From Nitrospiraceae bacterium (GTDB lineage Bacteria; Nitrospirota; Nitrospiria; Nitrospirales; Nitrospiraceae): a stretch of 64,000 nucleotides of DNA. The stretch's first letter is position 1. Every line of letters starts with the position of its first letter. The stretch is from assembly GCA_009692155.1 (NCBI GenBank), contig SHZW01000009.1:12272-76271 (forward strand). The letters run 5' to 3'. The notes beneath the pieces are model-generated. The model searched no databases and was not told where the DNA came from. It saw only the letters and a program-made list of their open reading frames with translations. A program made the position numbers and the translations under genes. Below, piece by piece: positions 3,152-54,161 of this stretch.

Positions 3152-3179
3152 GTGAGGCGTAAGGCGTGAGGCGTGAGGC
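3152..3179. repeat. four tandem heptamers GTGAGGC / GTAAGGC / GTGAGGC / GTGAGGC (no mirrored arm found)
   Basis: Read directly: cgtgaggcgtaaggcgtgaggcgtgaggcg. It lies between the receptor stop (3146) and the TonB-like gene, and contains that gene's GTG start (3166). Confidence 0.9.
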
Positions 3180-3657
3180 GATCAAAAAGCACGAAGATGG
3201 ATTCCGATGGCGGTTCTCTTCCGGTCTGTCTGCCTGGGCAATCGCGGCAAGTGTGATCCTGATGACTGTTCTTGCGGGACGAGCGGGTGCGGCGGAAGGG
3301 GATCGAGCGACGCACGATTCGGATCATGACGAGGATGTCGTCCTGCTGCCACCCGTCCACGTGCACGGGATTCCACTCAATAAAGACCAGCAACTGGGCC
3401 CGGTGCCGACCTATACGCCGTGGCCGGCCATTCCGCCGGTGCTCGAAGGAAAGGTCATCGATGATTGGATGAAGGCGCGGTTCATGGTGGCCAGGGACGC
3501 GACGATCGACGTGGTCGTGCTGGAGCCGTGCAAATACCGCGAGCTCACCGGCGCCGGCCTGGCCGCGCTGAAGCAATGGAAGTTCGATCCGCAGATGCGC
3601 GGCGAGGAACTGGTCGACGGGGAACTGACGGTGCGCATTCACTTCCGGGCGGAGTAG
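3166..3657 (+). CDS. TonB C-terminal-domain (energy transducer-like) protein
   Basis: 163 aa. The GTG start lies inside a heptamer array. It has one N-terminal TM helix (LSAWAIAASVILMTVLAG), a Pro-rich spacer (PVPTYTPWPAIPPV) and a C-terminal ~80 aa TonB_C-like domain. It is adjacent to the receptor. Confidence 0.65.
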   Translation: MRREAIKKHEDGFRWRFSSGLSAWAIAASVILMTVLAGRAGAAEGDRATHDSDHDEDVVLLPPVHVHGIPLNKDQQLGPVPTYTPWPAIPPVLEGKVIDDWMKARFMVARDATIDVVVLEPCKYRELTGAGLAALKQWKFDPQMRGEELVDGELTVRIHFRAE

Positions 3658-3664
3658 CGAGGTA

Positions 3665-4234
3665 GTGGTGAACTGGGACGTCACGCTGTTTCAGGCAATC
3701 AACGGGCTGGTCGGCCGGTCCGAGTGGCTGGACTGGCTGATGTTCCAGCTGGGACACCCAAAGTTTTTGTTGCTGCCTGGCCTGTTGGCGATCGGGTACT
3801 GGGCCTGGGTGCACAAGATCGAAGCGGCCCTCGGTGGCCCGGTTCTCTATGCCACGCTGGGAATCGGAGATTTTCTTGGCGCCCAGATCAAACATCTGGT
3901 CGAGCGGGCGCGGCCCTGCCGGGCGCTGAGCGGCGTGCACGAGCTGGCCGGCTGCGGCGGGACATTCAGTTTTCCTTCCAACCATGCCCTGAACATGGCG
4001 GCGGCAGCCGCGTTTCTTCACGTGCTCTATCCGGCAACCGGGTGGATCAGCTGGCCACTTGTCGCCCTGGTCGGGTTTTCCCGTGTGTACGTCGGGGGGC
4101 ATTATGTAACGGATGTGTTCGGCGGATGGGTAATCGGGGGAATGCTCGGAGCCGGTATCGCACTGCTCTTGTTACGGTGGCCGAAGTTCAGGCCAACCCG
4201 TCTTTCACCAGTCGGACAGCCCGTAATCGGTTAG
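3665..4234 (+). CDS. PAP2-family phosphatase (membrane, undecaprenyl-diphosphatase-like)
   Basis: All three PAP2 motifs are present: KHLVERARP, PSNH and SRVYVGGHYVTD. It has several hydrophobic helices and a GTG start. Confidence 0.8.
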   Translation: MVNWDVTLFQAINGLVGRSEWLDWLMFQLGHPKFLLLPGLLAIGYWAWVHKIEAALGGPVLYATLGIGDFLGAQIKHLVERARPCRALSGVHELAGCGGTFSFPSNHALNMAAAAAFLHVLYPATGWISWPLVALVGFSRVYVGGHYVTDVFGGWVIGGMLGAGIALLLLRWPKFRPTRLSPVGQPVIG

Positions 4235-4283
4235 GGGCGCAACTCTCAGACCATATTGTTCGGAAGTGATGACGTGGGATGCG

Positions 4284-5861
4284 TTATCGATTCTGAGGCA
4301 TGATCAGTTCAGGGGAAGCCGCAGATTTGACTGCAGGCGCTGAAGGGATCGAGGTGCGGAGAATGTTGCTGGGGATGATGCCCTGGCCCATCGAATGCTC
4401 ATAGCGAACGGCCGGTGCCGCGGTCTGATATGGAATGCCTAATGTGCGGCGCACGTCAGCCTCGAGCCAGTCGCGAAGGCGGACGAGGTCCTTGGGACTG
4501 AGGAAGTCCGTATATACATAGGAGGTGTACTCGCCAGGGACCCCTTTGTAGTATTCCGCGACTTCCCTGTAATCGACGGCCAGGCTGTGCAGCCGGTCGC
4601 CGGTCTTGGCATAGGTATATGTCCAGACGCCAGGCTTGGTCTCGACCGCCTCGTCGAAATAGGGGGTGCCGGGATAGGTGGTGATGACGGTGGCGTCGAA
4701 GTCCTCCGGGCGAACCTCCAGAAGCCAGTCCCGCGTCGCACGAATGGTCTCTTCCGATTCCCCGGGATGCCCCACAGACATCAGGGCCTTGACCTTCAAA
4801 TCGTGCTTCTTGGCAATCTCCATGCAGCGGGTATTGTCGGCCTGGGCCGCTTTCTTCTGGATGTTGGTCAGAATCCGCTCATGGCCCGACTCAAAGCCGA
4901 CCAGAATCCAGCGGAATCCGGCCCGGCGCATCGCCTCCGCCTGTTCGTCGGTGAAGAGTTCGGCTTTGATGAAGCCGCGCAACCGGAATTCCACTCCGAG
5001 CTTTTTCTGCGTGTCGGCGATCAGGTTCATCAATTCGACGATGCTGGGGCTGACGTTCAGCTCGTCGTCGTACAGCATGAACCCCCTGACGCCGTACGTC
5101 TGATGCAGGTGGACCATTTCCTGCACAATGTTGGCCGATGAGCGCGTCCGCACGCGACGAAGGAACGGGCTCATGCGCCCGCCGCAAAATCCGCAGCCGA
5201 ACGGACAGCCGAGTTGGGCGATCATGGACAGGGCCGGCACGCCGTCAATGTTATAGCGATAGCTGGGCACGTCGAGCAGATGGCGGGCCGGGAAGGGCAG
5301 CGTGTCGAGGACGGCGTTATCCAGGAACAGCGCTGACTTTGGATCGTCGCCGTCGATCAGTTTGGGCGGGTCCTCGCGCAGCGCTTCACGGATCGCAAAT
5401 TCGCCGTCACCCGTGATCAGCACGTCGTACATTTCTTCGAGGTGCCGGAACGCCTCGGTCGCGCGGCCCTTCTTGTTGCGCTTCTGCTCATATTTCACGG
5501 CGGCATGGATCAGGGTGATGTGGGGGCCGCCCAGCATGATTCTGGCTGAGGGGTTGAGCGCGCGGATGACCCGTTGGATTTTTGTCGTCGCCGGCATTTG
5601 CGGCGTCGTCGCCGTGAGCCCGTAGCAGGTCGCCGTGCTGGTTCGGACATAATCCTGAACTACTTCTTCGTAATTGCCGACTCCAGAGAGATCGAGCATT
5701 TCCACGGTGACACCGGCCTGTTCCAGTACGGATGCCACTTTGAGAATGCCCAACGACATGAAGACCCGCTCGTCCAGCAGGAAGATGGAAGGAGGAATGA
5801 TCAGGCAGATCCGGTCGATCATGTTTGCTGAGGCGTCCTGTGCGATCTCGTGTTGGAACAA
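4284..5861 (-). CDS. B12-binding-domain radical SAM protein (class B rSAM)
   Basis: CPFGCGFCGG is the CxxxCxxC radical SAM motif. The N-terminal domain looks cobalamin-binding (ICLIIPPS...LGILKVASVLEQAGV). The true start may be ATG 5822 (MIDRICL). Confidence 0.85.
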   Translation of the reverse strand: MFQHEIAQDASANMIDRICLIIPPSIFLLDERVFMSLGILKVASVLEQAGVTVEMLDLSGVGNYEEVVQDYVRTSTATCYGLTATTPQMPATTKIQRVIRALNPSARIMLGGPHITLIHAAVKYEQKRNKKGRATEAFRHLEEMYDVLITGDGEFAIREALREDPPKLIDGDDPKSALFLDNAVLDTLPFPARHLLDVPSYRYNIDGVPALSMIAQLGCPFGCGFCGGRMSPFLRRVRTRSSANIVQEMVHLHQTYGVRGFMLYDDELNVSPSIVELMNLIADTQKKLGVEFRLRGFIKAELFTDEQAEAMRRAGFRWILVGFESGHERILTNIQKKAAQADNTRCMEIAKKHDLKVKALMSVGHPGESEETIRATRDWLLEVRPEDFDATVITTYPGTPYFDEAVETKPGVWTYTYAKTGDRLHSLAVDYREVAEYYKGVPGEYTSYVYTDFLSPKDLVRLRDWLEADVRRTLGIPYQTAAPAVRYEHSMGQGIIPSNILRTSIPSAPAVKSAASPELIMPQNR

Positions 5862-5887
5862 CTCGTGGCCATCATCATAGAAAAAGT

Positions 5888-6619: not shown

Positions 6620-6639
6620 TGGTTTTATGGTGGTGGCGG

Positions 6640-12127: not shown

Positions 12128-12204
12128 GGGTTGCGGGGTTCGTGGTGCGAGGCGAGATAGCAGCGTGGAACTTTTACCTCGAACCCCGAACCTCGAACCT
12201 CTCG
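12128..12204. repeat. GAGGTTC-heptamer hairpin element (copy 1)
   Basis: Left arm gggttgcggggttcgtggtgcgaggcgag. Right arm cctcgaaccccgaacctcgaacctctcg. The right arm encodes the holB C-terminus. Confidence 0.8.
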
Positions 12205-13205
12205 TCTGTTCCCAGGAGCGCCTCGCGCAGGCGCAGCAGCACGTTTTCCAGCGCCATGCGGAGATTTAGATTGCGGCCGGCGGACCGCTGGAGTTGGTCA
12301 ATATCATCCAGCAGGCCGGCGAGTTGATCGGCCTGCGCGTTGCGCGTGGCGTTCTTCAAGAGAGGCAGGCGGTCCGCATGAATGAGGTGGTCCTGATCGG
12401 CGCCGATGCTCACGAGCAGCAGATCCCGGATCCATTGGGCCAGCCAGTCCAGGACCTCCGGTTCCCGGTCTGATTTATGGAAGGCTTCCGCTGCCGTCAG
12501 GATGGCGGTCACGGACCGTAGCGTTTGCGGTGAGGCGACAGCACACAATTCGTCGAGCGCGGCGCGCGTGGCGGCCAGGTCCATCGTCAAGGCGGCGCCG
12601 AGTCTCGACTGGCTGGCTGCGGCCAGGAGGCGCGCCTCGGCCGGGGGGATCTCGCGCTTGAGAATCAGCGCCGCCTCCACTTGGGTTCGAGCCGGAGGCG
12701 CGAAGCGAAGAGCCTGGCAACGCGAGCGGACGGTGGCCAGCAGAGCCGAGGGTCGGCCGGACACCAGCAACAGCACGCTGTGTTCCGGCGGCTCTTCCAG
12801 GGTTTTCAGAAGCGCGTTGGCCGCGCCCAGGGTCATCCGGTCGGCATCGTCGATCAGGAAGATTTTTTTTCGGCCGACCAGCGGATGGTAGACGATCTGT
12901 TGTTCCAGTTTGCGAACCTGTTCGATTTTGATTTGCGGGTTGGCGAGTTCCGGGTCCGGCTGAACGAGCAGGAAATCTGGATGCGTGCGAGCCTCGGTCT
13001 GCGTGCAGGACCGGCACGCGCCGCAGGCATCCGATCCGTCTCCGGACTCGCAATTGATGGCCTGCGCGAAGCGCAACGCGATCAGCTGTTTGCCGATGCC
13101 CTCGTCGCCGTGGAAGAGATAGGCATGGGCGATGCGATCGTGGCGCAGCGCCGACTGTAAGATTGTTTTCGGACGCTCGTGACCGATGACATCGTGAAAG
13201 GGCAT
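12174..13205 (-). CDS. holB: DNA polymerase III subunit delta prime
   Basis: The sequence runs HAYLFHGDEGIGK, then the Zn module CGACRSC, then IFLIDDADRM and LKTLEEPP. The last residues FEVRGSR are encoded by a repeat element. Confidence 0.85.
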   Translation of the reverse strand: MPFHDVIGHERPKTILQSALRHDRIAHAYLFHGDEGIGKQLIALRFAQAINCESGDGSDACGACRSCTQTEARTHPDFLLVQPDPELANPQIKIEQVRKLEQQIVYHPLVGRKKIFLIDDADRMTLGAANALLKTLEEPPEHSVLLLVSGRPSALLATVRSRCQALRFAPPARTQVEAALILKREIPPAEARLLAAASQSRLGAALTMDLAATRAALDELCAVASPQTLRSVTAILTAAEAFHKSDREPEVLDWLAQWIRDLLLVSIGADQDHLIHADRLPLLKNATRNAQADQLAGLLDDIDQLQRSAGRNLNLRMALENVLLRLREALLGTDERFEVRGSR

Positions 13206-14720: not shown

Positions 14721-14767
14721 GATTTTTTTCATTTTACGATTTGGTCATTGAGTGATTTTCTCCCAAA

Positions 14768-16345
14768 ATGAAACAATCTCTAAATGAAAAAATGAACAAA
14801 TCTCCCCTAGCCGGCCTCGGCGCGGTGGTGATGGCTGCCGGACTCGGCAAGCGGATGAAGTCCAAGCTGGCCAAGGTGCTGCATTCGGTCGCGGGGCGGC
14901 CGATGGTGCTCTATGCCGTGGATCTGGCCCGGCAACTGGCCAGCGAGCATGTCGCGGTGGTGGTGGGCTATCAGGGGAAAGAGGTGCGGACGGCGATCGA
15001 AGCGAGCGGGTCTCACGCCCCGGTGATGGTTGTCGAGCAGACGCAGCAGCTGGGAACCGGCCACGCCGTGCAGCAGGCGCGCGATCTGTTCAAGCGGCTG
15101 GGGAAAACGCTTTCCACCTACCTGATCCTGAACGGCGACACGCCCCTCCTGCAGCCGGCGACGCTCCAGGCTTTGCTGCGGCTCCACCAGGACGAGCAGG
15201 CGGCGGTGACGCTGCTGACGGCGACACCGGACGATCCAACCGGCTATGGCCGCGTGGTGCGCGGCAGGGACGGGCGCGTGCAGAAGATTGTCGAGGATCG
15301 GGATGCGACCGGCGCGGAGAAGCAGATTCATGAAATCAACGTCGGTACCTACGTCACGGACGGCCCGTTTCTCTTCGACGCCCTGGACAAGTTACAGCCC
15401 CGCAATGCGCAGGGAGAATACTACCTGACCGATATCGTCGCGCTGGCCGTGGAGCGGGGCTTGCGCGTATCCGCGCTGGCGGTTCATGAGGCGGCCGAGG
15501 GCATGGGCATCAACACCAGGGAGCAGCTCGCGGCGGCGGAACAGACGATCCGCCGGCGAATCTGCGCGCATTGGATGCAGGAAGGCGTCACGTTACGGAA
15601 TCCTGCGACGACGTCGATTGATGCGGATGTCGCGATCGGTCGGGATACGGTCATTCATCCCGATGTCACGCTCGAGGGCCGGACAATCATCGGGGAGGAT
15701 TGCATCATTCGCTCGCAGACGCGGATCAGCGACAGCACGCTCGGCCACCGGGTGGTCGTGCAGGATCACTGCGTGATCCGGGACTCGCGCCTGGAGGATG
15801 ATGCCGCGGTCGGTCCATTCGCGCATTTGCGTCCGGGCGCGGTGCTGCGCCGCGCGTCGAAGGTCGGCAATTTCGTCGAGATGAAGAAAGCCGAGTTGGG
15901 CGAAGGCTCGAAGGCGAACCATCTGAGCTATCTCGGGGATGCGACAATCGGCAAGGGCGTGAATATCGGCGCCGGCACGATCACATGTAATTACGACGGC
16001 CACAAGAAGCATGAAACGGTGATTGGCGACGATGTGTTTGTGGGGAGTGACACCCAGTTTGTCGCGCCGGTGACGATCGGCAAGGGCGCGGTGATTGCGG
16101 CCGGGGCGACGATCACGGCGGATGTGCCGCCGGACACGCTGGCGATCGCGCGGGCGCCGCAGGTGAACCGGCCCGGCTGGGCCTCGCGCAGGCGCGCATT
16201 GGCCGCCGAAAGCGGCAAGTCCGAGGTTCGAGGTTCGAGGTTAGAGGTGGGGAGCGTGGAGTCCAGAATGAAGCAACCCCGTACCTCGCACCCCGTACCT
16301 CGCACCCCCAAAGGTGTGAAAACTAGGAAGCGGACGAGGGGCTAA
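14768..16345 (+). CDS. glmU: bifunctional UDP-N-acetylglucosamine diphosphorylase / glucosamine-1-phosphate N-acetyltransferase
   Basis: AAGLGKRMKS nucleotidyltransferase motif, and a left-handed beta-helix hexapeptide region (ANHLSYLGDATIGKGVNIGAGTITCNYDG). A ~60 aa basic C-terminal tail is encoded by repeat element 16222..16309. Confidence 0.95.
   Translation: MKQSLNEKMNKSPLAGLGAVVMAAGLGKRMKSKLAKVLHSVAGRPMVLYAVDLARQLASEHVAVVVGYQGKEVRTAIEASGSHAPVMVVEQTQQLGTGHAVQQARDLFKRLGKTLSTYLILNGDTPLLQPATLQALLRLHQDEQAAVTLLTATPDDPTGYGRVVRGRDGRVQKIVEDRDATGAEKQIHEINVGTYVTDGPFLFDALDKLQPRNAQGEYYLTDIVALAVERGLRVSALAVHEAAEGMGINTREQLAAAEQTIRRRICAHWMQEGVTLRNPATTSIDADVAIGRDTVIHPDVTLEGRTIIGEDCIIRSQTRISDSTLGHRVVVQDHCVIRDSRLEDDAAVGPFAHLRPGAVLRRASKVGNFVEMKKAELGEGSKANHLSYLGDATIGKGVNIGAGTITCNYDGHKKHETVIGDDVFVGSDTQFVAPVTIGKGAVIAAGATITADVPPDTLAIARAPQVNRPGWASRRRALAAESGKSEVRGSRLEVGSVESRMKQPRTSHPVPRTPKGVKTRKRTRG
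16222..16309. repeat. GAGGTTC-heptamer hairpin element (copy 2)
   Basis: Left arm cgaggttcgaggttcgaggttagaggtgggg. Right arm ccccgtacctcgcaccccgtacctcgcaccccc. It lies inside the glmU 3' tail. Confidence 0.8.
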
Positions 16346-18181: not shown

Positions 18182-18185
18182 AATT

Positions 18186-18275
18186 GTCCGAAAGTCATAA
18201 AGTCGTCAAGTCATCAAGTCTCGGACTTGATGATCTTTGGACATTACGACTTTTAGACTTTACGACTTGAAAGAC
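18186..18275. repeat. AAGTC-octamer hairpin element (copy 1)
   Basis: gtccgaaagtcataaagtcgtcaagtcatcaagtc-tcg-gacttgatgatctttggacattacgacttttagactttacgacttgaaagac. It fills the glmS-gatC spacer. Confidence 0.9.
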
Positions 18276-18283
18276 TCAATCGA

Positions 18284-18973: not shown

Positions 18974-20439
18974 CGGGGATTCACCAACTCACCCTCGCAG
19001 ACCTCCAGAAGAAATTCACCGCCGGTGAGGTGACCGCGCGCGATATCGTGCAGGCCTACACCCTCCGTATTAATCAGGTCGAGCCGAAGGTCAAAGCCTA
19101 CATCACGCAGACCAAGGATGCGGCGATGGCGCAGGCCGATGCGCTGGACGAGAAGCTCAAGGGCTGGCGCCGCACCATGCCGCTCACGGGCATGCCGGTC
19201 GCCATCAAGGACAATATCTGCACGGAGCACGTTCCGACGACCTGTGCTTCGCGCATCCTCGGCAACTTCGTCCCGCCCTACGATGCGACCGTGATCGCGC
19301 GACTGCGCGGCCAGGATTATCTCCTGCTCGGCAAGACGAACCTGGATGAGTTTGCAATGGGCTCCTCGACGGAGAACTCCGCTTTCGGGCCGAGCCGGAA
19401 TCCCTGGAACATCAGCCATGTGCCGGGAGGGTCGAGCGGCGGCTCCGCGGCAGCGGTGGCGGCGGACGAATGCGTGGCGGCCCTGGGCTCGGATACCGGA
19501 GGGTCCATCCGGCAGCCGGCTGCGCTCTGCGGCGTGGTGGGATTAAAGCCGACCTATGGGCGTGTCTCGCGATTCGGCCTCATCTCATTCGCGTCGTCGC
19601 TCGATCAGATCGGTCCGATCACCAAAGACGTGACCGATGCCGCGATTATGCTGAACGTGATCGCCGCTCACGACCCGCTCGATTCCACGTCCGCAAACCT
19701 GCCGGTGTCGGACTATACGAAGGCGCTCAAAAAAAAGGACCTGAAAAAACTAAAAATAGGCGTGCCGGAGGAATTTTTTGCGGCCGGGATTGATCCGGAA
19801 GTCGAACAGGCTGTGCGGGCGGCGATCGGCGAACTCAAAAATTTGGGCGGGGAGATCAAGGAAGTCAGTCTGCCCACGACGGACTATGCGGTCGCCATCT
19901 ACTATCTGGTTGCCACGGCCGAGGCCAGTTCGAATCTCGCGCGCTATGACGGCGTCAAATACGGCCTGCGCACGAAGCAGACGAAAGACCTGCTGGACAT
20001 GTATGTGAAGACCCGGCAGGAGGGGTTCGGGCCGGAGGTGAAGCGGCGGATCATGCTCGGTACCTACGCGCTGAGCGCCGGCTACTACGATGCGTATTAC
20101 GGCAAGGCCCAGGCGGCGCGTACGATGACGAAAAATGATTTTGACGAGGCGTTTAAAGAGGTGGACCTGATCGTCACGCCGGTGACGCCCACGCCGGCGT
20201 TCAAGCTCGGCGAGAAGAGCGAAGATCCGTTGCAGATGTATTTGTCGGATATTTTCACGATTTCCGTAAACCTGGCCGGTTTGCCGGCGATTTCGATTCC
20301 CTGCGGGTTCAGCAAGGCGGGGCTGCCGATCGGATTGCAGATCATTGGGCGGCCGTTTGAAGAAGAAACGATTCTCCGGGCTGCGCACGCGTACGAGCAG
20401 GCAACGGATTGGCGCGCGAAGAAGCCGAATCTACGGTGA
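18970..20439 (+). CDS. gatA: Asp/Glu-tRNA amidotransferase subunit A
   Basis: Amidase signature [29 protein letters not shown] overlap with panD. Confidence 0.95.
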
Positions 20440-20514
20440 AAGGTGAAAAGTAAAAAGTGAAAGGTTGCGGAGTGGAATTCGGCTGTCTGAACCTTTTACC
20501 TCTCACTTTTCACG
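20436..20514. repeat. GTGAAAG-heptamer hairpin element
   Basis: Left arm ggtgaaaggtgaaaagtaaaaagtgaaaggtt. Right arm gaaccttttacctctcacttttcacg. It starts at the gatA stop codon. Confidence 0.85.
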
Positions 20515-20529
20515 TTTAACGGAGGAATT

Positions 20530-24413: not shown

Positions 24414-24761
24414 GTGATGATGCGCAGAAACCGCACGCACGACACGGTCAAGCGGCGCACGCGTCTCTTCGCGCGTGTGGCCATGCTGGCCGGCGGGGTG
24501 TTCGCAGTGACGCTCGGTGTCGCGTTCTTTTTCGGCGACATGGGCGTGTTCAAATATCTCAAGATGCGGGACCATTCCAGGCAGCTGGAGCAGGAGCTGA
24601 AAGATCTGGAGCGGACGAACACCGAGCTGAAGACGGAAATCCGGCGCACGCAGAACGATCCCATCAGGATCGAAGAGCTGGCCAGGGAACGGCTGGGCTT
24701 TGTGCGGCCGGGAGAGACGGTCTATCAAATCGTGAAAGACGCAAAAGGCAATCGGCAATAG
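24414..24761 (+). CDS. ftsB: septum formation initiator (FtsB/DivIC family)
   Basis: One TM helix, a coiled coil (QLEQELKDLERTNTELKTEI) and the ERLGFVRPGE motif. It is in the conserved position after eno. Confidence 0.75.
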   Translation: MMMRRNRTHDTVKRRTRLFARVAMLAGGVFAVTLGVAFFFGDMGVFKYLKMRDHSRQLEQELKDLERTNTELKTEIRRTQNDPIRIEELARERLGFVRPGETVYQIVKDAKGNRQ

Positions 24762-24817
24762 GCTATGGGTGGAATGTCGGAAACCTCAAGCAACCCTATA
24801 GCCCATCGCCCCTTGCC
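24745..24817. repeat. ATAGGCT/ATGGG-heptamer hairpin element (copy 1)
   Basis: Left arm aaggcaatcggcaataggctatgggtgg. Right arm ccctatagcccatcgccccttgcc. It lies in the ftsB-era spacer. Confidence 0.75.
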
Positions 24818-25726: not shown

Positions 25727-25807
25727 AGTCGAAAGTCATAAAGTCTAAAAGTCATCAAGTCAGAAGAAAAGACTTTACGACTTTAAGACGTTCAGACTTG
25801 AAAGACT
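25727..25807. repeat. AAGTC-octamer hairpin element (copy 2)
   Basis: agtcgaaagtcataaagtctaaaagtcatcaagtc ... gactttacgactttaagacgttcagacttgaaagact. It lies in the era-mgtE spacer. Confidence 0.9.
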
Positions 25808-31374: not shown

Positions 31375-31454
31375 GGGGTCAGGGGGCTGGTGGTTAAGAG
31401 TTTGGGGTTAGTAAAGAGGTTTTTTTGAGCTTCACAATCCACTGACCACTAACC
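31375..31454. repeat. GGT(T/C)AGT-heptamer hairpin element
   Basis: Plus strand: ggggtcagggggctggtggttaagagtttggggttagt ... ccactgaccactaacc. There is a T7 run in the loop. It lies just downstream of the helicase N-half stop. Confidence 0.7.
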
Positions 31455-31465
31455 GCTTCATCTGG

Positions 31466-32506
31466 CTATCTTGAGCGGGGCTGCAGCGTTTCGGCCTCAT
31501 ATTGAGAGAAGAGACGTTTGGATTCCTGGTGCAGGGAGGCATGGCCGTGAGGGATGCCGACAGATCGAAACAACGGGGCGAGCTTGCCAGAGGGATGCAG
31601 ATAGCCGGCTCGCAGCGGTACGGTCCGGCGGTTGTGCCGGACCAAATGGCAGGGAGTCGGCCTGATGCTGGTGAGCCAGGCGGCGATATCCTGAGGATTG
31701 CCGATCGACGCGGACAGCAGCAGCAGGCGGGCCTGGGTCGGGCAGAAAATGATGGTTTCCTCCCAGACCACGCCACGCTCCGGATCGGCGAGGTATTGCG
31801 ATTCATCCATAATCACCAATCCAAGGGTATCCAGCCGCACGTCAATTTCACCGCCCGCCGCATCGTACAGCAGGTTTCTGAGGATCTCGGTCGTCATGAT
31901 CAAGAGCGGCGCGTGCGTGTTATCCCGGCGGTCTCCGGTCAGGATGCCCACACGGTCCGCGCCGAATAGTTTCGAGAATTCGGTAAATTTGGTATTCGAA
32001 AGGGCTTTCAGCGGGGATGTATAGATGACGGTGCGCTCGGCGTCGATTGCCCGCCTGGTGGCCTCGACCGCCACGTACGTTTTGCCGCTGCCGGTCGGGA
32101 CACTGACGATGACGTCCGTTTCGGCCAGATGCGCCAACGCTTCCTCCTGCCATGGGTCCGGCACGAACGGGCTGGGTTCCGGGACTCCGATGCCTTCCAG
32201 GAAAGCCTTGAGGTCGGTCGCCGGCTCGGCCGGCTCCGGTTTGCCGGAAACAGACTGACGACGGGGGCTGGCCGGCTCCGTTCTCGGCTGCGCCTGTGGC
32301 CGGATCTGCTGCTGGTCGCCGTCCTTCATCAACGCGAGGAGGTCCGATTCCAGCCCTGCTCGGTTTGTGGCCGTGCTGCGCAGCAGCGCCTCGATAAGCC
32401 GGCGCTTGCCCAGGCGGAAATGCCGGGGGATGCGGCCGCGCCCCAGCTGGTGCAGCAGGGACACAGGCTGCACCGCGAGTAATTTTTCAAGTTCGTCGGT
32501 TGTCAT
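31466..32506 (-). CDS. Ski2/HelY-like SF2 helicase, RecA1 (N-terminal) half only
   Basis: Q motif PDPWQEEA, motif I VPTGSGKT, Ia YTSPLKALSN, Ib GILTGD, II VIMDESQY (DExQ variant) and III LSASIGN. It ends after RRTVPLRAGYL. A ~110 aa N-terminal extension is present. Confidence 0.85.
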   Translation of the reverse strand: MTTDELEKLLAVQPVSLLHQLGRGRIPRHFRLGKRRLIEALLRSTATNRAGLESDLLALMKDGDQQQIRPQAQPRTEPASPRRQSVSGKPEPAEPATDLKAFLEGIGVPEPSPFVPDPWQEEALAHLAETDVIVSVPTGSGKTYVAVEATRRAIDAERTVIYTSPLKALSNTKFTEFSKLFGADRVGILTGDRRDNTHAPLLIMTTEILRNLLYDAAGGEIDVRLDTLGLVIMDESQYLADPERGVVWEETIIFCPTQARLLLLSASIGNPQDIAAWLTSIRPTPCHLVRHNRRTVPLRAGYLHPSGKLAPLFRSVGIPHGHASLHQESKRLFSQYEAETLQPRSR

Positions 32507-32514
32507 GAATAGCT

Positions 32515-32616
32515 CACAAGTCTATCAAGTCGAAAAGTCTCTCAAGTCATAAAGTCGCCGGAAGCTCGCCTCTTTGATTTGAGACTTTACGACTTTCGAC
32601 TTTATGACTTTCGGAC
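32515..32616. repeat. AAGTC-octamer hairpin element (copy 3)
   Basis: cacaagtctatcaagtcgaaaagtctctcaagtcataaagtc ... gagactttacgactttcgactttatgactttcggac. It fills the spacer between the two helicase halves. Confidence 0.9.
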
Positions 32617-32619
32617 GCC

Positions 32620-34476
32620 TCACGGTAGTTCTTCCAGGACGCCCCGTCGCAGATTCTTGATCGCCTTGTCGGCGGTATCAGCCAGTCCGCGGTGGGTTCC
32701 CTTGAGCGTGTGGAGTTGCGACAGGTATTCCAGCGTCCTGGCCAGCAGCCGGTAGATGTCGCCCTCCGCCATGGTGGTCGTCCGGCAGAGACCGAGCCAC
32801 GTCAGGTTCGGATCGCTCACCCACCGCTCCGTCAGTGCGGCCACGTCGGCACGCAAGAGCGGAGGATCTTCGTGCGGCGCCAGGGACTCCGCCAGCCGCC
32901 GGACCTGCCACATGACCGTGGACAGACCGGGGCTCATGCGAGGGAATGAACCGGGGCGGTCGTTATCGTGCGAGATGCTCGACATGATCGCCGCCAGGAC
33001 ATGGGGTTCCACGCCCGTGAAGGCTTCGGCTCGGATTAATTCGGTGATCAGCAGCGAATGGTCCATGCGGATCAGCCGGGCCCATTCGCCATCCGCCGTC
33101 AGTTGGCAGGTGGGCGTGAGATAACCGAATTGCTGGAGAACATCCGTGCGGGATTGGAACCGGTGCCAGAGGCCGGTGCGCAGGGCGTGAATCATTTTCT
33201 GATGCCGCTGGACGTCCTGCCTGAGCTTCAACGCCGTGGCGTGGTCCTTCTGGCAGGCCGGCCGTGACGAGCAGGTGGGGCAGGGGAAGTCGTCGGTGAG
33301 CGTCAGGGCCACTTCCCGTTCCTCTGGTTCCGGCTGCACGAGGATGGGCAGCACGGGGAGGCGAACAGGCAGCTCCGACAGATGGCCGGTCAGTTCATCC
33401 AGACTGTGCGGGGCACACCAGGGATAGGCAGGCGCTTCCTGCACGTCGAACATCCGGTCGAAGACTTGCGTCACCGTCGAGGCCGGGCATTCGGTGACGG
33501 CGCCGGCTTCCCGTACGACTGTCACCATCGGACTCTTTTGTCCGCGGCTCCGGTACTGCCGGAGCACGATGCCGCGGCCTCTCGTTAAGCCGACGACGCG
33601 GCCCGGCGTCAAAAAATGCAGCCGCGAGGTCAACTCGGGCGGTTCCTGGCGCTTGGGGTGCACACGCTGCGATTTTCTTTTGCGGGCCTGCTCGAAGGAC
33701 TGCCATTGCGTGATCCAGTCCGTGCAGACGCGGGGGCCGTAGGGTTCCATCTGGACGTGCAGTGTGTCCAGCTTGCTCTCCAGCGTTTCGGCCCGCCGGT
33801 TGAGCTGGAACTGCGCAAAGCTTCTGGCCAGGATGGATTGAATCTGGCCCAACGGATGGGCTTTCAACAAGTTGAGTGCCATCGAATAGCTGATTGAAAA
33901 CTGGCTGTCGATCGGTTCGGGCTGTCCCGTCAGGCCCTTGGTGATGACGCCGAGGTCGATGTAGGGCGAGGGGGTGACGACCGCGAAACCGACGAGATCC
34001 TTGCCCCGGCGGCCCGCCCGCCCGGCCAGTTGCTGCACCTCGCTGTTCGTGAGATCGGTGAAGTCTCTCGTCTTGCGCACGCTCGATTGCGTGATCACGA
34101 CCGTGCGGGCGGGGAAGTCCACGCCTGCAGCCAGCGTCGTGGTGGCGAAGACCGCGTCGAGAAGCCCCTGCCGCATCAGTTCTTCAATGGCGATCTTCCA
34201 TGACGGCAAATGGCCAGCGTGGTGTGCGGCGACGCCGATGCGCTCCACGATGGGCACGAGCGGGTGCTCCGCGATGCTGGGGTATTGCGTGGCCAGTTCC
34301 TGGAGCGTCGCGGCAATGTTCCGCCGGCGCGCCGGCGGAAGCGCGACCTGGTCGCGCTCGAATGCCTGCATCGCGTCGTCGCAGGCCCGGCGGGAGGTCA
34401 GAAAGACAATTGCGGGGGTGAGGTTATGCTGGCGGAGCGCCGCGATGAGGTCAACCGGATGGATTGATGGCGGCAT
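32620..34476 (-). CDS. Ski2/HelY-like SF2 helicase, RecA2 plus C-terminal (DSHCT-like) half only
   Basis: Motif IV PAIVFLTSRRACDDA, then GVAAHHAGHLPSWK, motif V FATTTLAAGVDFPART and motif VI QLAGRAGRRGKD. The C-terminal MAEGDIYRLLARTLEYLSQL is DSHCT-like. It has no motif I-III. Confidence 0.85.
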   Translation of the reverse strand: MPPSIHPVDLIAALRQHNLTPAIVFLTSRRACDDAMQAFERDQVALPPARRRNIAATLQELATQYPSIAEHPLVPIVERIGVAAHHAGHLPSWKIAIEELMRQGLLDAVFATTTLAAGVDFPARTVVITQSSVRKTRDFTDLTNSEVQQLAGRAGRRGKDLVGFAVVTPSPYIDLGVITKGLTGQPEPIDSQFSISYSMALNLLKAHPLGQIQSILARSFAQFQLNRRAETLESKLDTLHVQMEPYGPRVCTDWITQWQSFEQARKRKSQRVHPKRQEPPELTSRLHFLTPGRVVGLTRGRGIVLRQYRSRGQKSPMVTVVREAGAVTECPASTVTQVFDRMFDVQEAPAYPWCAPHSLDELTGHLSELPVRLPVLPILVQPEPEEREVALTLTDDFPCPTCSSRPACQKDHATALKLRQDVQRHQKMIHALRTGLWHRFQSRTDVLQQFGYLTPTCQLTADGEWARLIRMDHSLLITELIRAEAFTGVEPHVLAAIMSSISHDNDRPGSFPRMSPGLSTVMWQVRRLAESLAPHEDPPLLRADVAALTERWVSDPNLTWLGLCRTTTMAEGDIYRLLARTLEYLSQLHTLKGTHRGLADTADKAIKNLRRGVLEELP

Positions 34477-41340: not shown

Positions 41341-42563
41341 GGAAGGTTCAGGTTGAGGCTCAGGTTGAGGGTACGCACACACTCGTGGAGGTGTGGTCTC
41401 TGCTGACCTCGGCTTCAGGTTTAACCTTAGCCTTAGCCTTAGCCTTCCCGGGGCTCTCCGCCTGCGACCGGACCGAACAGCCTGCCTCGTCGAATGCCGC
41501 GACACCGAAGGTGCAATCTGCGCCATCCGTGCCGACAGATCTTCAAAGCCGGGTCGACACGATGGTGGTCGAGTATAGCTCGGTCAAGGTGGCCCTGCAG
41601 CTGGCCGGGCGGATCATCTATGGCGAAGACCGGTTTTCTAAAATCTCGTCGCCTCTGCAAGGCCGTGTGGTCGAAGTGCGTGCCAAGCTCGGCGACCATG
41701 TGAAGGCCGGAGACATCCTGCTCGTCATCGACAGTCCGGACATCTCCGCAGCCTATTCTGAATTTGTCAAAGAGGCGTCCGAGATGGAATACGCGACGCG
41801 TGCCTATGAATTGGCCAAGGATCTCTACGAAAACAAGGCTCTTCCGCAGAAGGATCTCAAGCAGGCCGAGAACGATCTCATCAAGGCCAGGGCGGAGTTC
41901 CGTCGCGCCAAGGAGCGGCTGCTGTCGCTGCGCGTGCCGGCGGGCGAGTTGGACAAGCCGCTGGCCGATCAGAAGATCACGTCCCGATTCGACATGAAGA
42001 GCCAGCTGGCCGGCACGGTGGTGGAGCGGAACGTGACACCAGGGCAGTCTGTGAACGGCGACCCCACCCAGGTGCTCTTCATCGTGGCTGATCTGGACAA
42101 GTTGCAGGTCGCGGCGGATCTCTACGAGCGGGATTTGGATCTGGTCAAGGTCGGGCAGGTGGCGGCTGTCACCGTGGAAGCCTATCAAGGCGTATCGTTC
42201 CCCGCAGTCCTCTCTGCCATCGGTGATGTGGTGGATCCCACCACGCGCACCATCAAGGTCAGGGCCATGGTGGACAATGAGACGCATAAACTGAAGCCGG
42301 AAATGTTTGCCCGCTTGAACATTGACGTTGGCGATACCACCCAGTTCATCGCCGTTCCACGTGAAGCCGTGCTGGAAGTAGACGGGAAAGAGTTTGTCTA
42401 TGTGGCGCAAGTCGGCAACCAGTATGTCAAACGGCCTGTCAAAACGGCGACTGCGTCGAACGATCAGGTGCGCATTCTTGAAGGGCTGGTGCCCGGCGAG
42501 CGGGTCGTGACGAAAGGCGCGGTCCTCATCAAAGGGCAGGAAACCAAGGCGCCAGGCGCATGA
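41337..42563 (+). CDS. czcB: RND efflux periplasmic adaptor (CzcB/HlyD-like)
   Basis: The GTG overlaps the czcC stop (GTGA). Lipobox GLSAC is followed by barrel-sandwich hybrid and beta-barrel regions. The N-terminal ~35 codons lie inside repeat element 41341..41448, so the true start is uncertain (an alternative GTG lies near 41385). Confidence 0.8.
   Translation: MRKVQVEAQVEGTHTLVEVWSLLTSASGLTLALALAFPGLSACDRTEQPASSNAATPKVQSAPSVPTDLQSRVDTMVVEYSSVKVALQLAGRIIYGEDRFSKISSPLQGRVVEVRAKLGDHVKAGDILLVIDSPDISAAYSEFVKEASEMEYATRAYELAKDLYENKALPQKDLKQAENDLIKARAEFRRAKERLLSLRVPAGELDKPLADQKITSRFDMKSQLAGTVVERNVTPGQSVNGDPTQVLFIVADLDKLQVAADLYERDLDLVKVGQVAAVTVEAYQGVSFPAVLSAIGDVVDPTTRTIKVRAMVDNETHKLKPEMFARLNIDVGDTTQFIAVPREAVLEVDGKEFVYVAQVGNQYVKRPVKTATASNDQVRILEGLVPGERVVTKGAVLIKGQETKAPGA
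41341..41448. repeat. AGGTTG/AGGCTT-hexamer hairpin element (copy 1)
   Basis: Left arm ggaaggttcaggttgaggctcaggttgaggg. Right arm ttaaccttagccttagccttagccttcc. It starts 1 nt after the czcC stop and overlaps the czcB 5' end. Confidence 0.85.
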
Positions 42564-45693: not shown

Positions 45694-46536
45694 ATGCGTA
45701 GGCAAGGCCTTTCACGCGTGATGGTCCTGGCAGTCTGGTGCGTAGCCGGCGGCCTGTCCGTCTGTCTTGCCGTACCGTCTGTTGAGGCACGCGGTGAGGC
45801 CTCTGTCCTACCGGTTCAAGCTCCCGACAGCGGGCAGATTCCCTATGGGTACGAGATGCCGCCTCCTTCGCAGGAGGCGCCGGACACTTCCATTCCGCCA
45901 TTGAACAAGCCGCTCGGGCCGGAGGAACTCAAGCGGGCAGAAGCGCTGCTGCCAATGCTGGAAGGCAAGCAGGAATTGTGGGCCATGGGAGAGTTCGTCC
46001 ACCTGGGCAAGCCGGCCGTGCCGGTGTTGACCAAGGCGTTGACGATGTCTAGCCCCAGGATCCGGTACAATGCGATCGAGACGCTGCTGATAATCAAGGA
46101 TCCGAGTGCCGTCCCGGCGTTGATTTCCGTGGCGAAAGATCCTCAAGAGATGCCGCGTATCCGCGAGCACGCTCTACGGGTGGCCGTCCGGCTGGATCCG
46201 GCGCTGACGCCGCCTGCGATCGAGGCCATGGCGAAGGACCAGGAGCCGGCGATCCGAAAGGTCTCGGCATTCGAGGCGCGGTATGTGCGCCAGAAGGCCG
46301 TTGTGCCGGCGCTGATCGGTTTGATGGCGGACGAGGAGCGGTTTGTGGCGCTTACGGCCATCCAATCCCTCTGGATTCTGACCCGCCACGAGAGCGAGAT
46401 GCACGACTGGGATATCTCCACCCGGCAGGATCGGAAGGAGTGGTCCAAGGAGTGGATCGACTGGTGGGCGACAAACCGGGAGACGTTTCAATTGCCCGAA
46501 CCGCGTCAGCCCCGCAAGCCGCTGCCAAAGGACTGA
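45694..46536 (+). CDS. secreted HEAT-repeat protein
   Basis: Signal peptide, then repeated PAVPVLTKAL..RIRYNAIETL / PSAVPALISVA..RIREHAL / PPAIEAMA..AIRKVSA / VPALIGLM HEAT-like units. The ATG immediately follows the czcA TAA. Confidence 0.65.
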   Translation: MRRQGLSRVMVLAVWCVAGGLSVCLAVPSVEARGEASVLPVQAPDSGQIPYGYEMPPPSQEAPDTSIPPLNKPLGPEELKRAEALLPMLEGKQELWAMGEFVHLGKPAVPVLTKALTMSSPRIRYNAIETLLIIKDPSAVPALISVAKDPQEMPRIREHALRVAVRLDPALTPPAIEAMAKDQEPAIRKVSAFEARYVRQKAVVPALIGLMADEERFVALTAIQSLWILTRHESEMHDWDISTRQDRKEWSKEWIDWWATNRETFQLPEPRQPRKPLPKD

Positions 46537-46600
46537 GTGCTGAGTATAAAGTGCTGAGTCCTGAGCAAAGGAATCCGGGCTCAGCTCTCAGGACTCAGGA
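46533..46600. repeat. CTGAGTN-heptamer hairpin element
   Basis: Left arm ctgagtgctgagtataaagtgctgagtcctgagc. Right arm gctcagctctcaggactcagga. It starts at the stop codon of the HEAT-repeat gene. Confidence 0.85.
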
Positions 46601-46659
46601 TTTGTGCACAGCGCTGGCGTTGCGAGCCCGGCGAGGGCTGTGTTATAAAACGAACCGGA

Positions 46660-47190: not shown

Positions 47191-47211
47191 CAGGCCGCAT
47201 AGCACGCACCC

Positions 47212-48936: not shown

Positions 48937-48996
48937 TGTGATTGTCTGCAGGGGTGGAGCGCGGCTATACTAAAGCCGTCGGCCGGAGAATACGGG

Positions 48997-49191: not shown

Positions 49192-49194
49192 GCC

Positions 49195-49413: not shown

Positions 49414-49433
49414 TCTGCTGGTTTCCTCATCTT

Positions 49434-49790: not shown

Positions 49791-49867
49791 GCGAAAAATT
49801 GCGCGTATTATGGCATCGGGCATACGCGTGCGCCAGCACATTTTACTGGAACGGCCGCGCGTGTCGT

Positions 49868-50350: not shown

Positions 50351-50353
50351 TTT

Positions 50354-50521
50354 GTCCGAAAGTCGTCAAGTCTGAAAGTCATAAAGTCTTGGCTTAGTCA
50401 TCAAGTTCTAAGGTCGTAAAGTCTTCAGGTCGACTTGACGTTATGACTTTACAGACTTTCTGACTTGATAGACATGCCTTCTCGGTAGACTTTACGACTT
50501 GATGACTTTGGACTTTCAGAC
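50354..50521. repeat. AAGTC-octamer hairpin element (copy 4, longest)
   Basis: gtccgaaagtcgtcaagtctgaaagtcataaagtc...gtaaagtcttcaggtc | gacttgacgttatgactttacagactttctgacttgat...gactttacgacttgatgactttggactttcagac. The centre is at gtcgac (about 50430). Confidence 0.9.
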
Positions 50522-50530
50522 CGGGCTGCA

Positions 50531-51334: not shown

Positions 51335-51350
51335 GGCTTCGCTCAGATTA

Positions 51351-51421
51351 GAGGTTATAGGCTATGGGTAATGGGCGAAGAAAGCACCTATAGCCCATCA
51401 CCTCGCGCCTATTGCCTATTC
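51351..51421. repeat. ATAGGCT/ATGGG-heptamer hairpin element (copy 2)
   Basis: Left arm gaggttataggctatgggtaatgggcg. Right arm cacctatagcccatcacctcgcgcctattgcctattc. It lies between the NIL gene stop and the ThiF copy 1 start. Confidence 0.8.
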
Positions 51422-51655
51422 AATAACGTTTAGCTCGATGGGGTCGACCGTGACCCCTTTCTTCTTCATGCCTTCGATGGCCCGCTCGATTTCGGCCGTC
51501 TCGCCGCTCAGTTCCAGATCTATCCAGCCGGTGGTTTCCCGTACATCGGCCCGGCGGATGTTGGTCACCACCTTATATTCATGGCCGATCTGGTACACGA
51601 TCGGCTCCTTGATTTTCTGTTCAGGGAATCGGATATGGAAACGCATATTCGGCAT
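51416..51655 (-). CDS. stand-alone NIL-domain protein
   Basis: 79 aa from ATG 51655: [62 protein letters not shown] resembles the NIL (MetN C-terminal) domain. Its ATG overlaps the stop of the carrier gene (ATGA). Confidence 0.65.
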   Translation of the reverse strand: MPNMRFHIRFPEQKIKEPIVYQIGHEYKVVTNIRRADVRETTGWIDLELSGETAEIERAIEGMKKKGVTVDPIELNVIE

Positions 51656-51930
51656 CAGTTGCCCCCTGCAATGGCCGGTACGATTGAAACTTCGTCGCCA
51701 TCCTTGAGCGACGTGTCCTTGCCGTTCAAAAACCGGATGTCTTCCTCGTTGACGTAGATATTCACGAAGCGGCGCAACTCGCCCTTGTCGTCGCACAGCC
51801 GGTCTTTCAGGCCGGGATGGGCGGAGTTCAGGGTCTCGATCATCTCGGAGATGTTTGCCGCCGTGGCTTCCACTTCGCCCTGGCCTTTGGTCAGGGGCCG
51901 CAGGGGAGTGGGAATTCGAACCTTAATCAC
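51655..51930 (-). CDS. CysO/MoaD-family sulfur-carrier protein ending ...AIAGGN
   Basis: 91 aa. IPTPLRPLT...[14 protein letters not shown]...[14 protein letters not shown] closely parallels M. tuberculosis CysO. One extra residue (N) follows Gly-Gly; I verified the codons ggc ggg aac tga on the minus strand. The GTG start overlaps the thrC stop. Confidence 0.85.
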
Positions 51931-53186: not shown

Positions 53187-53201
53187 GACGTCACCACTCC
53201 A

Positions 53202-53263
53202 GAAGGTTGAGGTTAAGGCTTAGGTTAAGTTTCCTTCTCAGCCTAAGCCTCAACCTTAACCTG
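53202..53263. repeat. AGGTTG/AGGCTT-hexamer hairpin element (copy 2)
   Basis: Core stem AGGTTAAGGCTTAGG (53210-53224) pairs with CCTAAGCCTCAACCT (53242-53256), giving 14/15 Watson-Crick pairs on the plus strand. It lies between the thrC start and the ThiF copy 2 stop. Confidence 0.9.
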
Positions 53264-54064
53264 CTTCAGCTCGCAGGCTTCCTGCTCGTAATCGATCAGC
53301 TTCGTGATGGTCGGGTGTTCGCCGCACAGGGGGCAGTGCGGATTGCGCTTCGTTTTGATTTCACGGAACGACGCTTTCTTGGCGTCGTAGTCCAGCAGCC
53401 GGTCGGTCAGCAGCCGGCCGATGCCGAGCACGATCTTCAGCGCTTCGGTCGCTTGCAGGGTTCCGATGACGCCGGCCAGCGCGCCGATCACGCCGGCTTC
53501 CTGACAGCTCGCGACCAGCCCGGCCGGCGGCGGCTGTTTGAACACGCACCGGTAGCAGGCTGATTTCTTCGGAAGGATCGTGGTCACCCGGCCGTCAAAA
53601 CGGAGGATGCCGCCGTGCACCAGCGGCTTGTCGGCAAAGACGCAGGCGTCGTTGATCAGGAACTTGGTGGGAAAATTGTCCACACCGTCGATCACAACGT
53701 CGTAGCCGGAGACGAGCTTCAAGGCATTGCCGGCCACAAAGCGCTCTTCGTGCAGCACGACCTGAACATCCGGATTGAGCGCCTGAATTTTTTCCTTGGC
53801 CGACAGAACCTTGGACCGGCCCACGTCCGGGGTGTAGTGGATGATTTGCCGCTGCAGATTGGACAGGTCCACCGCATCGCTGTCGATCAAACCGATCGTG
53901 CCGACGCCCGCCGCGGCCAGATAGAATGCAGCGGGGGAGCCGAGACCGCCGGCGCCGACGATGAGGATCTTCGCCCTGGCGATTTTCTTCTGTCCCTTGC
54001 CGCCCACCTCCGGCAATAGAATGTGACGGCTGTAGCGGGTAACCTGTTCGTCTGTGAATTCCAT
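53243..54064 (-). CDS. ThiF/MoeB-family E1-like adenylyltransferase, copy 2 (no rhodanese domain)
   Basis: RYSRHILL, GAGGLGSPAAFYLAAAGVG and CYRC...CPLC. It is a paralogue of copy 1. Start ATG 54064 (MEFTDEQ). The last residues KQVKVEA are encoded by a repeat. Confidence 0.9.
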   Translation of the reverse strand: MEFTDEQVTRYSRHILLPEVGGKGQKKIARAKILIVGAGGLGSPAAFYLAAAGVGTIGLIDSDAVDLSNLQRQIIHYTPDVGRSKVLSAKEKIQALNPDVQVVLHEERFVAGNALKLVSGYDVVIDGVDNFPTKFLINDACVFADKPLVHGGILRFDGRVTTILPKKSACYRCVFKQPPPAGLVASCQEAGVIGALAGVIGTLQATEALKIVLGIGRLLTDRLLDYDAKKASFREIKTKRNPHCPLCGEHPTITKLIDYEQEACELKQVKVEA

Positions 54065-54069
54065 GTCAG

Positions 54070-54161
54070 CAAGTCCGAAAGTCGTCAAGTCCGAAAGTCG
54101 TCAAGTCCGAAAGTCTTGAGATGAACGACTTGAAGACTTTACGACTTTTTGACTTTTGGAC
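54070..54161. repeat. AAGTC-octamer hairpin element (copy 5)
   Basis: Left arm holds three consecutive copies of the 16-mer caagtccgaaagtcgt (the third incomplete: caagtccgaaagtc). Right arm is gacttgaagactttacgactttttgacttttggac. It lies between the cysK stop and the ThiF copy 2 start. Confidence 0.9.

Follow-up and report, generated by a model that had tools for sequence, protein, structure and literature searches.

Mirrored arrays of short tandem words at co-directional gene junctions in Nitrospiraceae and their turnover among relatives

In this study, we describe a class of short palindromic elements at the gene junctions of a Nitrospiraceae bacterium and relate them to their counterparts in other lineages. 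The window, by which we mean the whole stretch of DNA analyzed, comprises 64 kb (contig SHZW01000009.1 of assembly GCA_009692155.1, positions 12,272 to 76,271) and has a G+C content of approximately 60%. It carries sixteen elements built from tandem copies of a short degenerate word, and 15 of the 16 are two-armed, the first array being followed by one of complementary words. Together they occupy roughly one in three of the spacers between genes of the same direction. We give about an even chance to the reading that they are intercistronic DNA palindromes, similar to repetitive extragenic palindromic (REP) sequences and bacterial interspersed mosaic elements (BIMEs), which were seeded by copying between sites and then remodeled by slippage. 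An earlier note on this DNA had listed fifteen elements of one architecture; 14 of these hold up, a sixteenth (14724-14800) has been added, and the one at 31375-31454 is marginal, its complementary words not being nested.

For detection, we combined ungapped inverted-repeat complementarity with a periodicity test of both arms, using 40 dinucleotide shuffles and 1.35 Mb from 80 unrelated genomes as controls. Eight hairpins periodic in both arms were found in the window, compared with 0.1 (maximum 1) in the shuffles and 0.9 per 64 kb in the unrelated genomes, so that the elements stand out from both backgrounds against which the earlier note had proposed to set them. Inverted repeats as a whole are ordinary in number (16 in the window, 13.7 per 64 kb in the controls), and it is therefore the periodicity that is unusual. 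Independently, Tandem Repeats Finder called the arms of most elements, and an inverted-repeat search recovered the paired arms, frequently in several registers. Our own ungapped scan detected 12 of the 14 listed two-armed elements at a score of at least 11 and that at 24745 at a score of at least 10, while 31375 was not detected. According to Tandem Repeats Finder and autocorrelation, the arms have periods of 6-9 nt and 3-6 units each. Predicted fold energies of the two-armed elements range from -14 to -55 kcal/mol, with z between -3.6 and -8.8 for 12 elements and weak folds for the remaining four (3152, one-armed, z 0.2; 16219, -1.4; 31375, -1.4; 14724, -2.4).

All 16 elements lie between co-directional genes and fill almost the whole spacer; such junctions carry an element in 16 of 51 cases, as opposed to none of the 10 convergent or divergent ones (Fisher p = 0.05), a comparison that the earlier note had suggested. 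Among co-directional spacers of 50-200 nt, 13 of 16 consist of such an element. The earlier observation that nearly all begin at or near a stop codon also proved correct: 15 of the 16 start at, inside or no more than 21 nt from the upstream stop, the exception being 16222, which lies in the glmU frame. The end of the upstream frame is overlapped at holB, divIC, gatA, a HEAT-repeat gene and a ThiF-family gene. We grouped the elements into families by word (K, AAGTC; H, AGGTTR; G, ATRGSC; F, GAGGTTC; A, GTGAAAG; S, GTGAGGC); in window coordinates, they are as follows.

3152-3179: GTGAGGC/GTAAGGC x 4.3, one-armed, family S; 5 nt past a TonB-receptor stop and about 16 nt ahead of the next start; called by Tandem Repeats Finder (3151-3180); no hairpin, z 0.2.
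12128-12204: palindrome of GAGGTTC heptamers, family F; minus-strand junction of holB and metG; predicted energy -31 kcal/mol, z -3.6.
14724-14800: TTTTCAT/ATGAAAA palindrome, AT-rich, T-rich arm first; between a DUF502 gene and glmU; found by the inverted-repeat search, z -2.4.
16222-16309: palindrome of GAGGTTC heptamers, family F; lies within the glmU frame at its 3' end, with 42 nt left to glmS; z -1.4 (folded from 16219).
18186-18273: AAGTC palindrome with an 8-nt period, family K; between glmS and gatC; z -5.8.
20436-20520: GTGAAAG heptamer palindrome, family A; gatA stop TGA in the first word, Shine-Dalgarno (SD) sequence of the DUF948 gene after the last word; z -5.1.
24745-24817: palindrome of ATAGGC/ATGGG heptamers, family G; junction of divIC and era, with the divIC stop TAG within a word; z -4.1.
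25727-25805: AAGTC palindrome, family K; between era and mgtE; z -5.5.
31375-31454: GGT(T/C)AGT words and their complements; the weakest member, with complementary words not nested; z -1.4, no inverted-repeat match.
32517-32613: AAGTC palindrome, family K; minus strand, between two helicase-domain open reading frames (ORFs); z -4.3.
41341-41448: AGGTTG/AGGCTC hexamer palindrome, family H; from the stop of an outer-membrane efflux gene to before an HlyD-type gene; -54.5 kcal/mol, z -7.0.
46533-46603: CTGAGTN heptamer palindrome; the HEAT-repeat gene stops within the first word, and the next gene is peptide deformylase; z -6.3.
50354-50515: long composite AAGTC element, family K; minus strand, between ThiF-family and JAB-domain genes; z -5.8.
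51351-51421: ATAGGC/ATGGGC heptamer palindrome, family G; ends 16 nt before a ThiF-family start; z -4.9.
53201-53265: AGGTTG/AGGCTT hexamer palindrome, family H; minus strand, covers a ThiF-family stop and ends 14 nt before a PALP-enzyme start; z -8.8.
54065-54161: AAGTC palindrome, family K; one arm is a perfect 16-nt x 2.9 array at 54070-54115 (Tandem Repeats Finder score 92, 100% matches); z -5.5.

The words given in the earlier note were seen at every coordinate for which they had been cited. Its count of eight unrelated words was upheld in part: several words are real, but GAGGTTC is near GAGGTT/AAGGTT, GTGAGGC is near GTGAAAG, and ATAGGCT contains AGGCT as found in AGGCTT. Several of the elements reach into coding sequence. 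The element at 12128-12204 spans the final ~10 codons of holB (12174-13205), which consist of repeat words, together with the holB stop; the glmU frame (14792-16345) reads through the entire GAGGTTC element at 16222 and so acquires a repeat-encoded C-terminal extension; and, at 51351, a small upstream ORF on the minus strand (about 51416-51655, as read by eye) has its stop TAG in a word of the element. The window genes themselves are ordinary and include metG, holB, tmk, glmU, glmS, gatCAB, eno, divIC, era, mgtE and recO, as well as an RND efflux operon, def, an ABC transporter and ThiF/ThiS/JAB/PALP genes. A scan of the window for tRNA and tmRNA genes found none. The Ski2/HelY-like helicase (31466-34476, minus strand) is present as two adjacent ORFs in permuted order, Helicase_C and DSHCT first and DEAD second, with the AAGTC element of 32517-32613 between them.

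Turning to the arms, we compared each left arm with the reverse complement of its right arm and found identity to be flat over the in-phase registers and equal to the identity of words in the same arm. It follows that one degenerate word is arrayed twice and that the arms are not exact mirror copies, and an exact mirror (fold-back) origin is rejected, as there is no privileged register. They also have a fixed polarity, the G-rich array being 5' on either strand. Of the Nitrospira elements, 26 have more G than C in the 5' arm, 2 have less and 5 have equal amounts (p = 3e-6); this arm is purine-rich in 30 versus 2. No G-rich-arm bias was seen in control inverted repeats (224 versus 202), and non-periodic inverted repeats are likewise unbiased. 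A distant GC-rich lineage and the viral cases have the same G-rich-5' polarity.

Similarity between elements follows families. AAGTC occurs at five window junctions, and AGGTTR, ATRGSC and GAGGTTC at two each. Elements of the AAGTC family have common outer ends (GTCCGAAAGTC ... GACTTGAAAGACT), as do those of the AGGTTR family (GAAGGTTGAGG ... CCTCAACCTTC); within a family, the words and the outer ~12-20 nt are common, while loops and word order are locus-specific. Across ~230 kb we count at least 12 word families, six of them at two or more non-orthologous junctions, and relatives whose era differs by 15-27% have these families too, outer ends included. The earlier note's argument against the spread of one mobile sequence is sustained. 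At glmS/gatC, era/mgtE and glmU/glmS the words are unlike the sequence of the empty site. Together with the recurring families and the strain-level swaps set out below, this indicates that copying between sites is needed beyond slippage.

To place the elements in an evolutionary context, we compared the window with related sequences. The nearest genomes by enolase are Nitrospiraceae metagenome-assembled genomes (82% and 78% identity), and a genome-collection scan anchored on enolase, which is too conserved, yielded two relatives only. Era-anchored retrieval gave 62 metagenome loci; the contigs compared here carry L numbers. Relatives with at least 73% nucleotide identity in era carry the same kind of element at ~9 per 64 kb, compared with 1.2 in controls. 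No elements were found in L002 or in the next-closest lineages (L097-L108), and one call was made in L109. The window itself matches a metagenome assembly, which would suit an assembly or binning artefact of metagenome contigs; we find such an artefact scarcely credible, given that independent assemblies of many samples and sources have the same families at these junctions, with differing substitutions and intact syntenic genes.

The junction of era and mgtE illustrates how quickly a site can change. Seven lineages have no element there (stop, CC, ATG). AAGTC is found in the window, L082, L083 and L096, AGGTTR in L090, L092, L093, L095 and L106, and ATGGGC in L081. The glmS/gatC, glmU/glmS, gatA/DUF948 and helicase junctions have the same variability, with 7-, 8- and 9-nt periods at one site. 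At glmU/glmS, L087, L094, L096 and L101 have no element, and L083 and L086 have other word families; at glmS/gatC, L085 and L087 have none, and the families of L086 and L089 use 9-nt words; the helicase site of 32517 is a GTGA stop/start overlap in L086 and carries other families in L082 and L092. Likewise, the site of 14724-14800 is empty in L086, L087 and L089. The element at 24745 has orthologues in ~14 loci, with an empty site in L087 and L101, and its right arm, upstream of era, is kept even in the lineage with 73% era identity. At gatA/DUF948, the relatives form a series: empty, two words, one-armed, two-armed. L093/L095 and L096 differ at era/mgtE, where AGGTTR stands against AAGTC while the flanks are ~99% and era ~100% identical; the stop codon differs too.

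Several other features were encountered at or near these junctions. In the 73% lineage, the glmS/gatC junction (L094:3230-3460, L096:3380-3430) contains GC-rich palindromic repeats of ~20 nt (GTGCTCGCGCGCYGCGCAC) spaced by ~32-35 nt, which resemble REP/BIME sequences or a mini-array; four copies are found in L094 and about one in L096, contigs that are >99% identical elsewhere. In a second contig of ENA sample ERZ1305449 with the same genes, ~2.2 kb with three small ORFs (no Pfam match) lies between glmS and gatC at the exact position of the AAGTC element (window 18182-18283). Relative to the window, L086:16191-17906 is a 1.7-kb insertion at the junction of element 31375; read by eye, with no family search made, it appears to code for two lipoproteins, and there is no sign of a transposase. 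Upstream of enolase, L081:143-178 and L083:8212-8239 are one-armed arrays on the C/T-rich strand (GACTTTNN x 4), just before the start codon and without an AAGTC partner. Downstream of era, L113:2038-2069 and L136 carry a short array of the self-palindromic word ATTTCGAAATTCGAATTTCGAAATTCGAAAT, so that one tandem array constitutes both arms.

Two kinds of indel separate close contigs: those of word units (6, 7 and 14 nt), which we attribute to replication slippage, and clean ones of whole elements (66, 76 and 98 nt). The perfect 16-nt x 2.9 array in one arm of 54065-54161 indicates a recent expansion of that arm. The earlier note had proposed slippage plus template switching as the generating mechanism; the word-unit indels and the perfect array agree with this, but a purely local origin does not fit families that recur and units that are swapped whole. 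We accordingly consider it unlikely that slippage merely amplified local sequence and template switching mirrored it, with families arising by coincidence and nothing moving. Such a process would be in line with the word-unit indels and the one perfect recent expansion, with the one-armed arrays at window 3152 and in L085, with the gatA/DUF948 series, whose words are like the local TAAGGAGG, with unrelated words in the same design in other phyla and viral contigs, and with unique loops and the lack of target-site duplications. Yet it would leave unaccounted for the AAGTC family at five window junctions with common outer ends, present also in lineages 27% apart; words unlike the empty site at glmS/gatC, era/mgtE and glmU/glmS; different families at one site in strains with ~99% identical flanks; and arms that are never exact mirror copies, even in young-looking elements.

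In L082, an allele may have moved between lineages. The AAGTC elements at era/mgtE in the window, L082 and L083 have 91-95% identity, where era third positions are only 67-69% identical, and the sisters of L082 are empty at this junction; the similarity of the elements thus does not track the gene tree. L082 further has a 60-nt divergent era patch, and its mgtE begins with two sites that are donor-like. These differences are suggestive, though only suggestive, of an AAGTC allele imported by a short recombination tract.

The elements are units of 60-160 bp, comprising 3-6 imperfect word copies, a unique loop and then the reverse-complement array. Under the reading of seeding between sites, an existing family member would be copied to a new site by a process that leaves no duplication, for which an HUH enzyme like the REP-associated tyrosine transposases (RAYTs) or strand-switch copying are candidates. 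Afterwards, slippage would remodel the arms, and arm-to-arm copying, selection for pairing or both would keep them alike. Transcribed as part of operon mRNAs, the elements would form long imperfect stem-loops lacking a U-tail, and hence would not act as intrinsic terminators, while the base of the stem would bring the stop codon together with the next ribosome-binding site and start. They might, for example, block 3'-exonucleases, serve as processing sites or modulate translational coupling, any such role being unproven.

Several points weigh against this reading. No mobilizing enzyme was found among the window proteins scanned, a genome-wide search not being possible. Copies of one family at different loci have neither loop nor full-length similarity, which is unusual for recent transposition, and the G-rich-5' polarity has no established cause. 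The graded gatA/DUF948 series (two words, then one-armed, then two arms), with words like the local stop-plus-SD sequence, looks like local growth. The recombination tract in L082 hangs on a 60-nt patch and two diagnostic sites. Lastly, the restriction of the elements to junctions, which tolerance alone does not explain, may point to a selected RNA function.

Covariation of the two arms was minimal within three Nitrospira orthologue groups and clear in the GC-rich lineage. There, eight orthologues have 92% of cells paired; both sides have changed in 7 pairs (13 cells), with one one-sided change only and many transversion swaps; these values were reached by at most 1 of 500 shuffles. Arm complementarity has thus been maintained over evolutionary time, but not through wobble intermediates. 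Such transversion swaps fit whole-word replacement or arm-to-arm copying of DNA, and selection for pairing would also be possible. As regards the earlier note's alternative of selection on structure, complementarity is maintained, but selection on RNA structure is not shown by the wobble and strand tests.

In those tests, stem mismatches comprised 19 sense G.U, 37 sense A.C and 68 other, so that G.U is not enriched, with low power for stems of 25-40 bp. Folding energies of sense and antisense strands were mixed, neither being consistently better. Strand-specific RNA selection is thus not supported, both tests having low power for stems of this length. A three-frame stop trap was also considered and rejected, as first arms contain 6.2 stops per 100 nt and composition-matched shuffles 5.5. 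The terminator scan did not call the elements and its counts equaled those in shuffles; none of the elements has a T-tail, and the tails are not T-rich. Rfam at gathering threshold gave no matches in the 64-kb window.

That the elements are selected as RNA, as intercistronic stem-loops tuning operon expression (for example as a barrier to 3'-exonucleases, a target of RNase III or a coupling device), with words bound by a trans factor or serving as G-poor leaders for the next gene, strikes us as possible but doubtful. Their exclusive occurrence at co-directional stop-to-start junctions, starting at the stop codon, would be expected in this case, as would stable predicted stems, complementarity kept across orthologues, the high identity of the era/mgtE AAGTC element (91-95%, against 67-69% at era third positions) and a right arm upstream of era that is conserved even in the 73% lineage. 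The lack of favored sense G.U (at low power) and of a consistently better-folding strand runs counter to it, as do compensatory changes that are mainly transversion swaps with hardly any wobble intermediates. So do the frequent loss or swapping of elements between close strains and the many factors that at least 12 word families would demand.

Ribbon-helix-helix proteins bind heptad arrays, and Fur boxes are hexamer arrays, so that convergent 7-9-bp sites for oligomerizing proteins on double-stranded DNA deserve mention. Periods of 6-9 bp in convergent orientation would fit such arrays, the AAGTC core is better conserved than the linkers, and similar arrays are found in viral contigs. We nonetheless regard this explanation as extremely unlikely, as a dozen or more families lie inside housekeeping operons without promoter context, strain-level turnover at one site is hard to square with operators, and no linked regulator gene was found among the window proteins scanned.

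A further, very unlikely explanation would have the elements written and not copied: a lineage-encoded enzyme equipped with a few short templates, which could be telomerase-like, a reverse transcriptase or a primase-polymerase, would add degenerate G-rich words to both 3' ends at a break or nick in the junction, and the ends would be joined in a miniature head-to-head "telomere fusion". Such writing would explain the fixed polarity, independent arms, unique loops as junction filler and one-armed arrays, as well as the absent target-site duplications, the families common to lineages 27% apart and the patchy taxonomy. No such word-writing enzyme is known in bacteria.

The design probably extends beyond the Nitrospiraceae lineage. 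At enolase loci, single periodic palindromes with other words occur in L010:4114-4201, L016:9535-9626, L046:2826-2915, L056:11802-11894 and L036:8923-8996, with Planctomycetota, Tannerella, an uncultured bacterium, Leptospirales and Verrucomicrobiota as their hosts; in the Leptospirales case the C-rich arm comes first. Viral-class IMG/VR contigs have the same design with the G-rich arm first (L187:8267-8339, L195:4166-4238, L192:6373-6450, L198:1021-1114 and L210:3125-3184), and one IMG/VR palindrome has AAGTC-like words (AGTCGGAAAGTCCGAAAGTC...GGACTTTCCGACTT). When viral contigs were scanned for AAGTC arrays, most matches were not hairpins and were judged to be chance or simple arrays, with a few true periodic palindromes among them. 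The scattered cases (Planctomycetota, Bacteroidota, Leptospirales, the GC-rich lineage, Xanthomonas and viral contigs) suggest that the class may be general. If the class is general, it would represent an overlooked part of bacterial intergenic DNA, a source of operon-level expression variation in nitrifiers and a practical strain marker. The elements have a legible anatomy, with countable words, fixed polarity and clean filled and empty sites, and because they change between near-identical strains, their birth, growth and death could be followed in metagenome time series. The unexplained polarity and the word families that cross species point to an undescribed mechanism.

To discern what kind of element this is, it is helpful to set it beside known systems. 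With intrinsic terminators, the elements share a stable stem-loop right after a stop codon, but they have no U-tract, form stems of 25-40 bp with periodic mismatches and lie inside operons just before the next start. Like miniature inverted-repeat transposable elements (Correia, ERIC, RUP), they are short, non-coding, hairpin-forming, insertion-polymorphic and often co-transcribed; unlike these, they have neither target-site duplications nor full-length similarity between copies. Flanking direct repeats of at least 6 nt were found in 3 of 43 elements, with 4.3 expected, and the 8-nt GAATGAAA flanking 18191 is a single case with 0.26 expected. Cyanobacterial short tandemly repeated repetitive (STRR) sequences and TAACTGA repeats are likewise intergenic tandem heptamers in several word families, of lineage-specific abundance and often adjoining coding ends. 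The STRR sequences nevertheless use other words, belong to heterocystous cyanobacteria and are direct arrays almost never mirrored, whereas the present ones are mirrored and found in Nitrospiraceae. The TAACTGA arrays of Beggiatoaceae are direct and upstream of start codons, with one inverted case in 170 sets (PMC4679880). The literature on TAACTGA repeats, STRR, triplex motifs and RepRanger does not describe the present design. The earlier note had allowed for an already catalogued repeat family of known function; Rfam gave no match, and the nearest published case is that of the paired arrays of Xanthomonas.

REP and BIME sequences have been known for forty years, and their origin and role are still debated. 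Together with REPINs, as found in enterobacteria and pseudomonads, they resemble the elements in being extragenic palindromes at gene 3' ends and in operons, in several families, without target-site duplication, of strain-variable presence and copy number, and forming stem-loops in mRNA (PMC3733652, PMC3116915). REP units differ in being near-identical over 20-40 nt, tagged with GTAG or CGTC and linked to RAYTs, where the present elements are arrays of degenerate words with unique loops and no tag. The family ends (GTCCGAAAGTC, GAAGGTTGAGG, GCAAATAGC, CCGAGGTTC) lack a GTAG or CGTC end tag and any common tag, the five AAGTC copies within 64 kb are alike in words and outer ends and not in loops, and no RAYT (Y1 HUH) gene was found among the window proteins scanned.

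The (GGGANTN)n or GGGAATC arrays of Xanthomonas come nearest. These are tandem degenerate heptamers, mostly of ~4 units, about three quarters of which are paired, "always convergent" and with the G-rich array first; they are mainly intergenic, between co-oriented ORFs and nearer the upstream ORF (mean 28 nt), and their length varies among related species (Rehm et al. 2015, PMC4692102). That work studied a single G-tract word as a former of G-quadruplexes (PMC4692102), while the GGGANTN word with its quadruplex potential does not occur here, the window words lacking regular GGG tracts. Tandem degenerate units, a convergent G-rich-first pair and a co-oriented junction near the upstream stop are all found in our elements as well. 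What sets ours apart are a dozen or more families, periods of 6-9 nt, tight stop-to-start packing, replacement of one family by another at a single site and their host, Nitrospirota. In conclusion, the elements are closest to a variant of the REP-like class, with their nearest precedent in Xanthomonas, where the design is realized with one word only.

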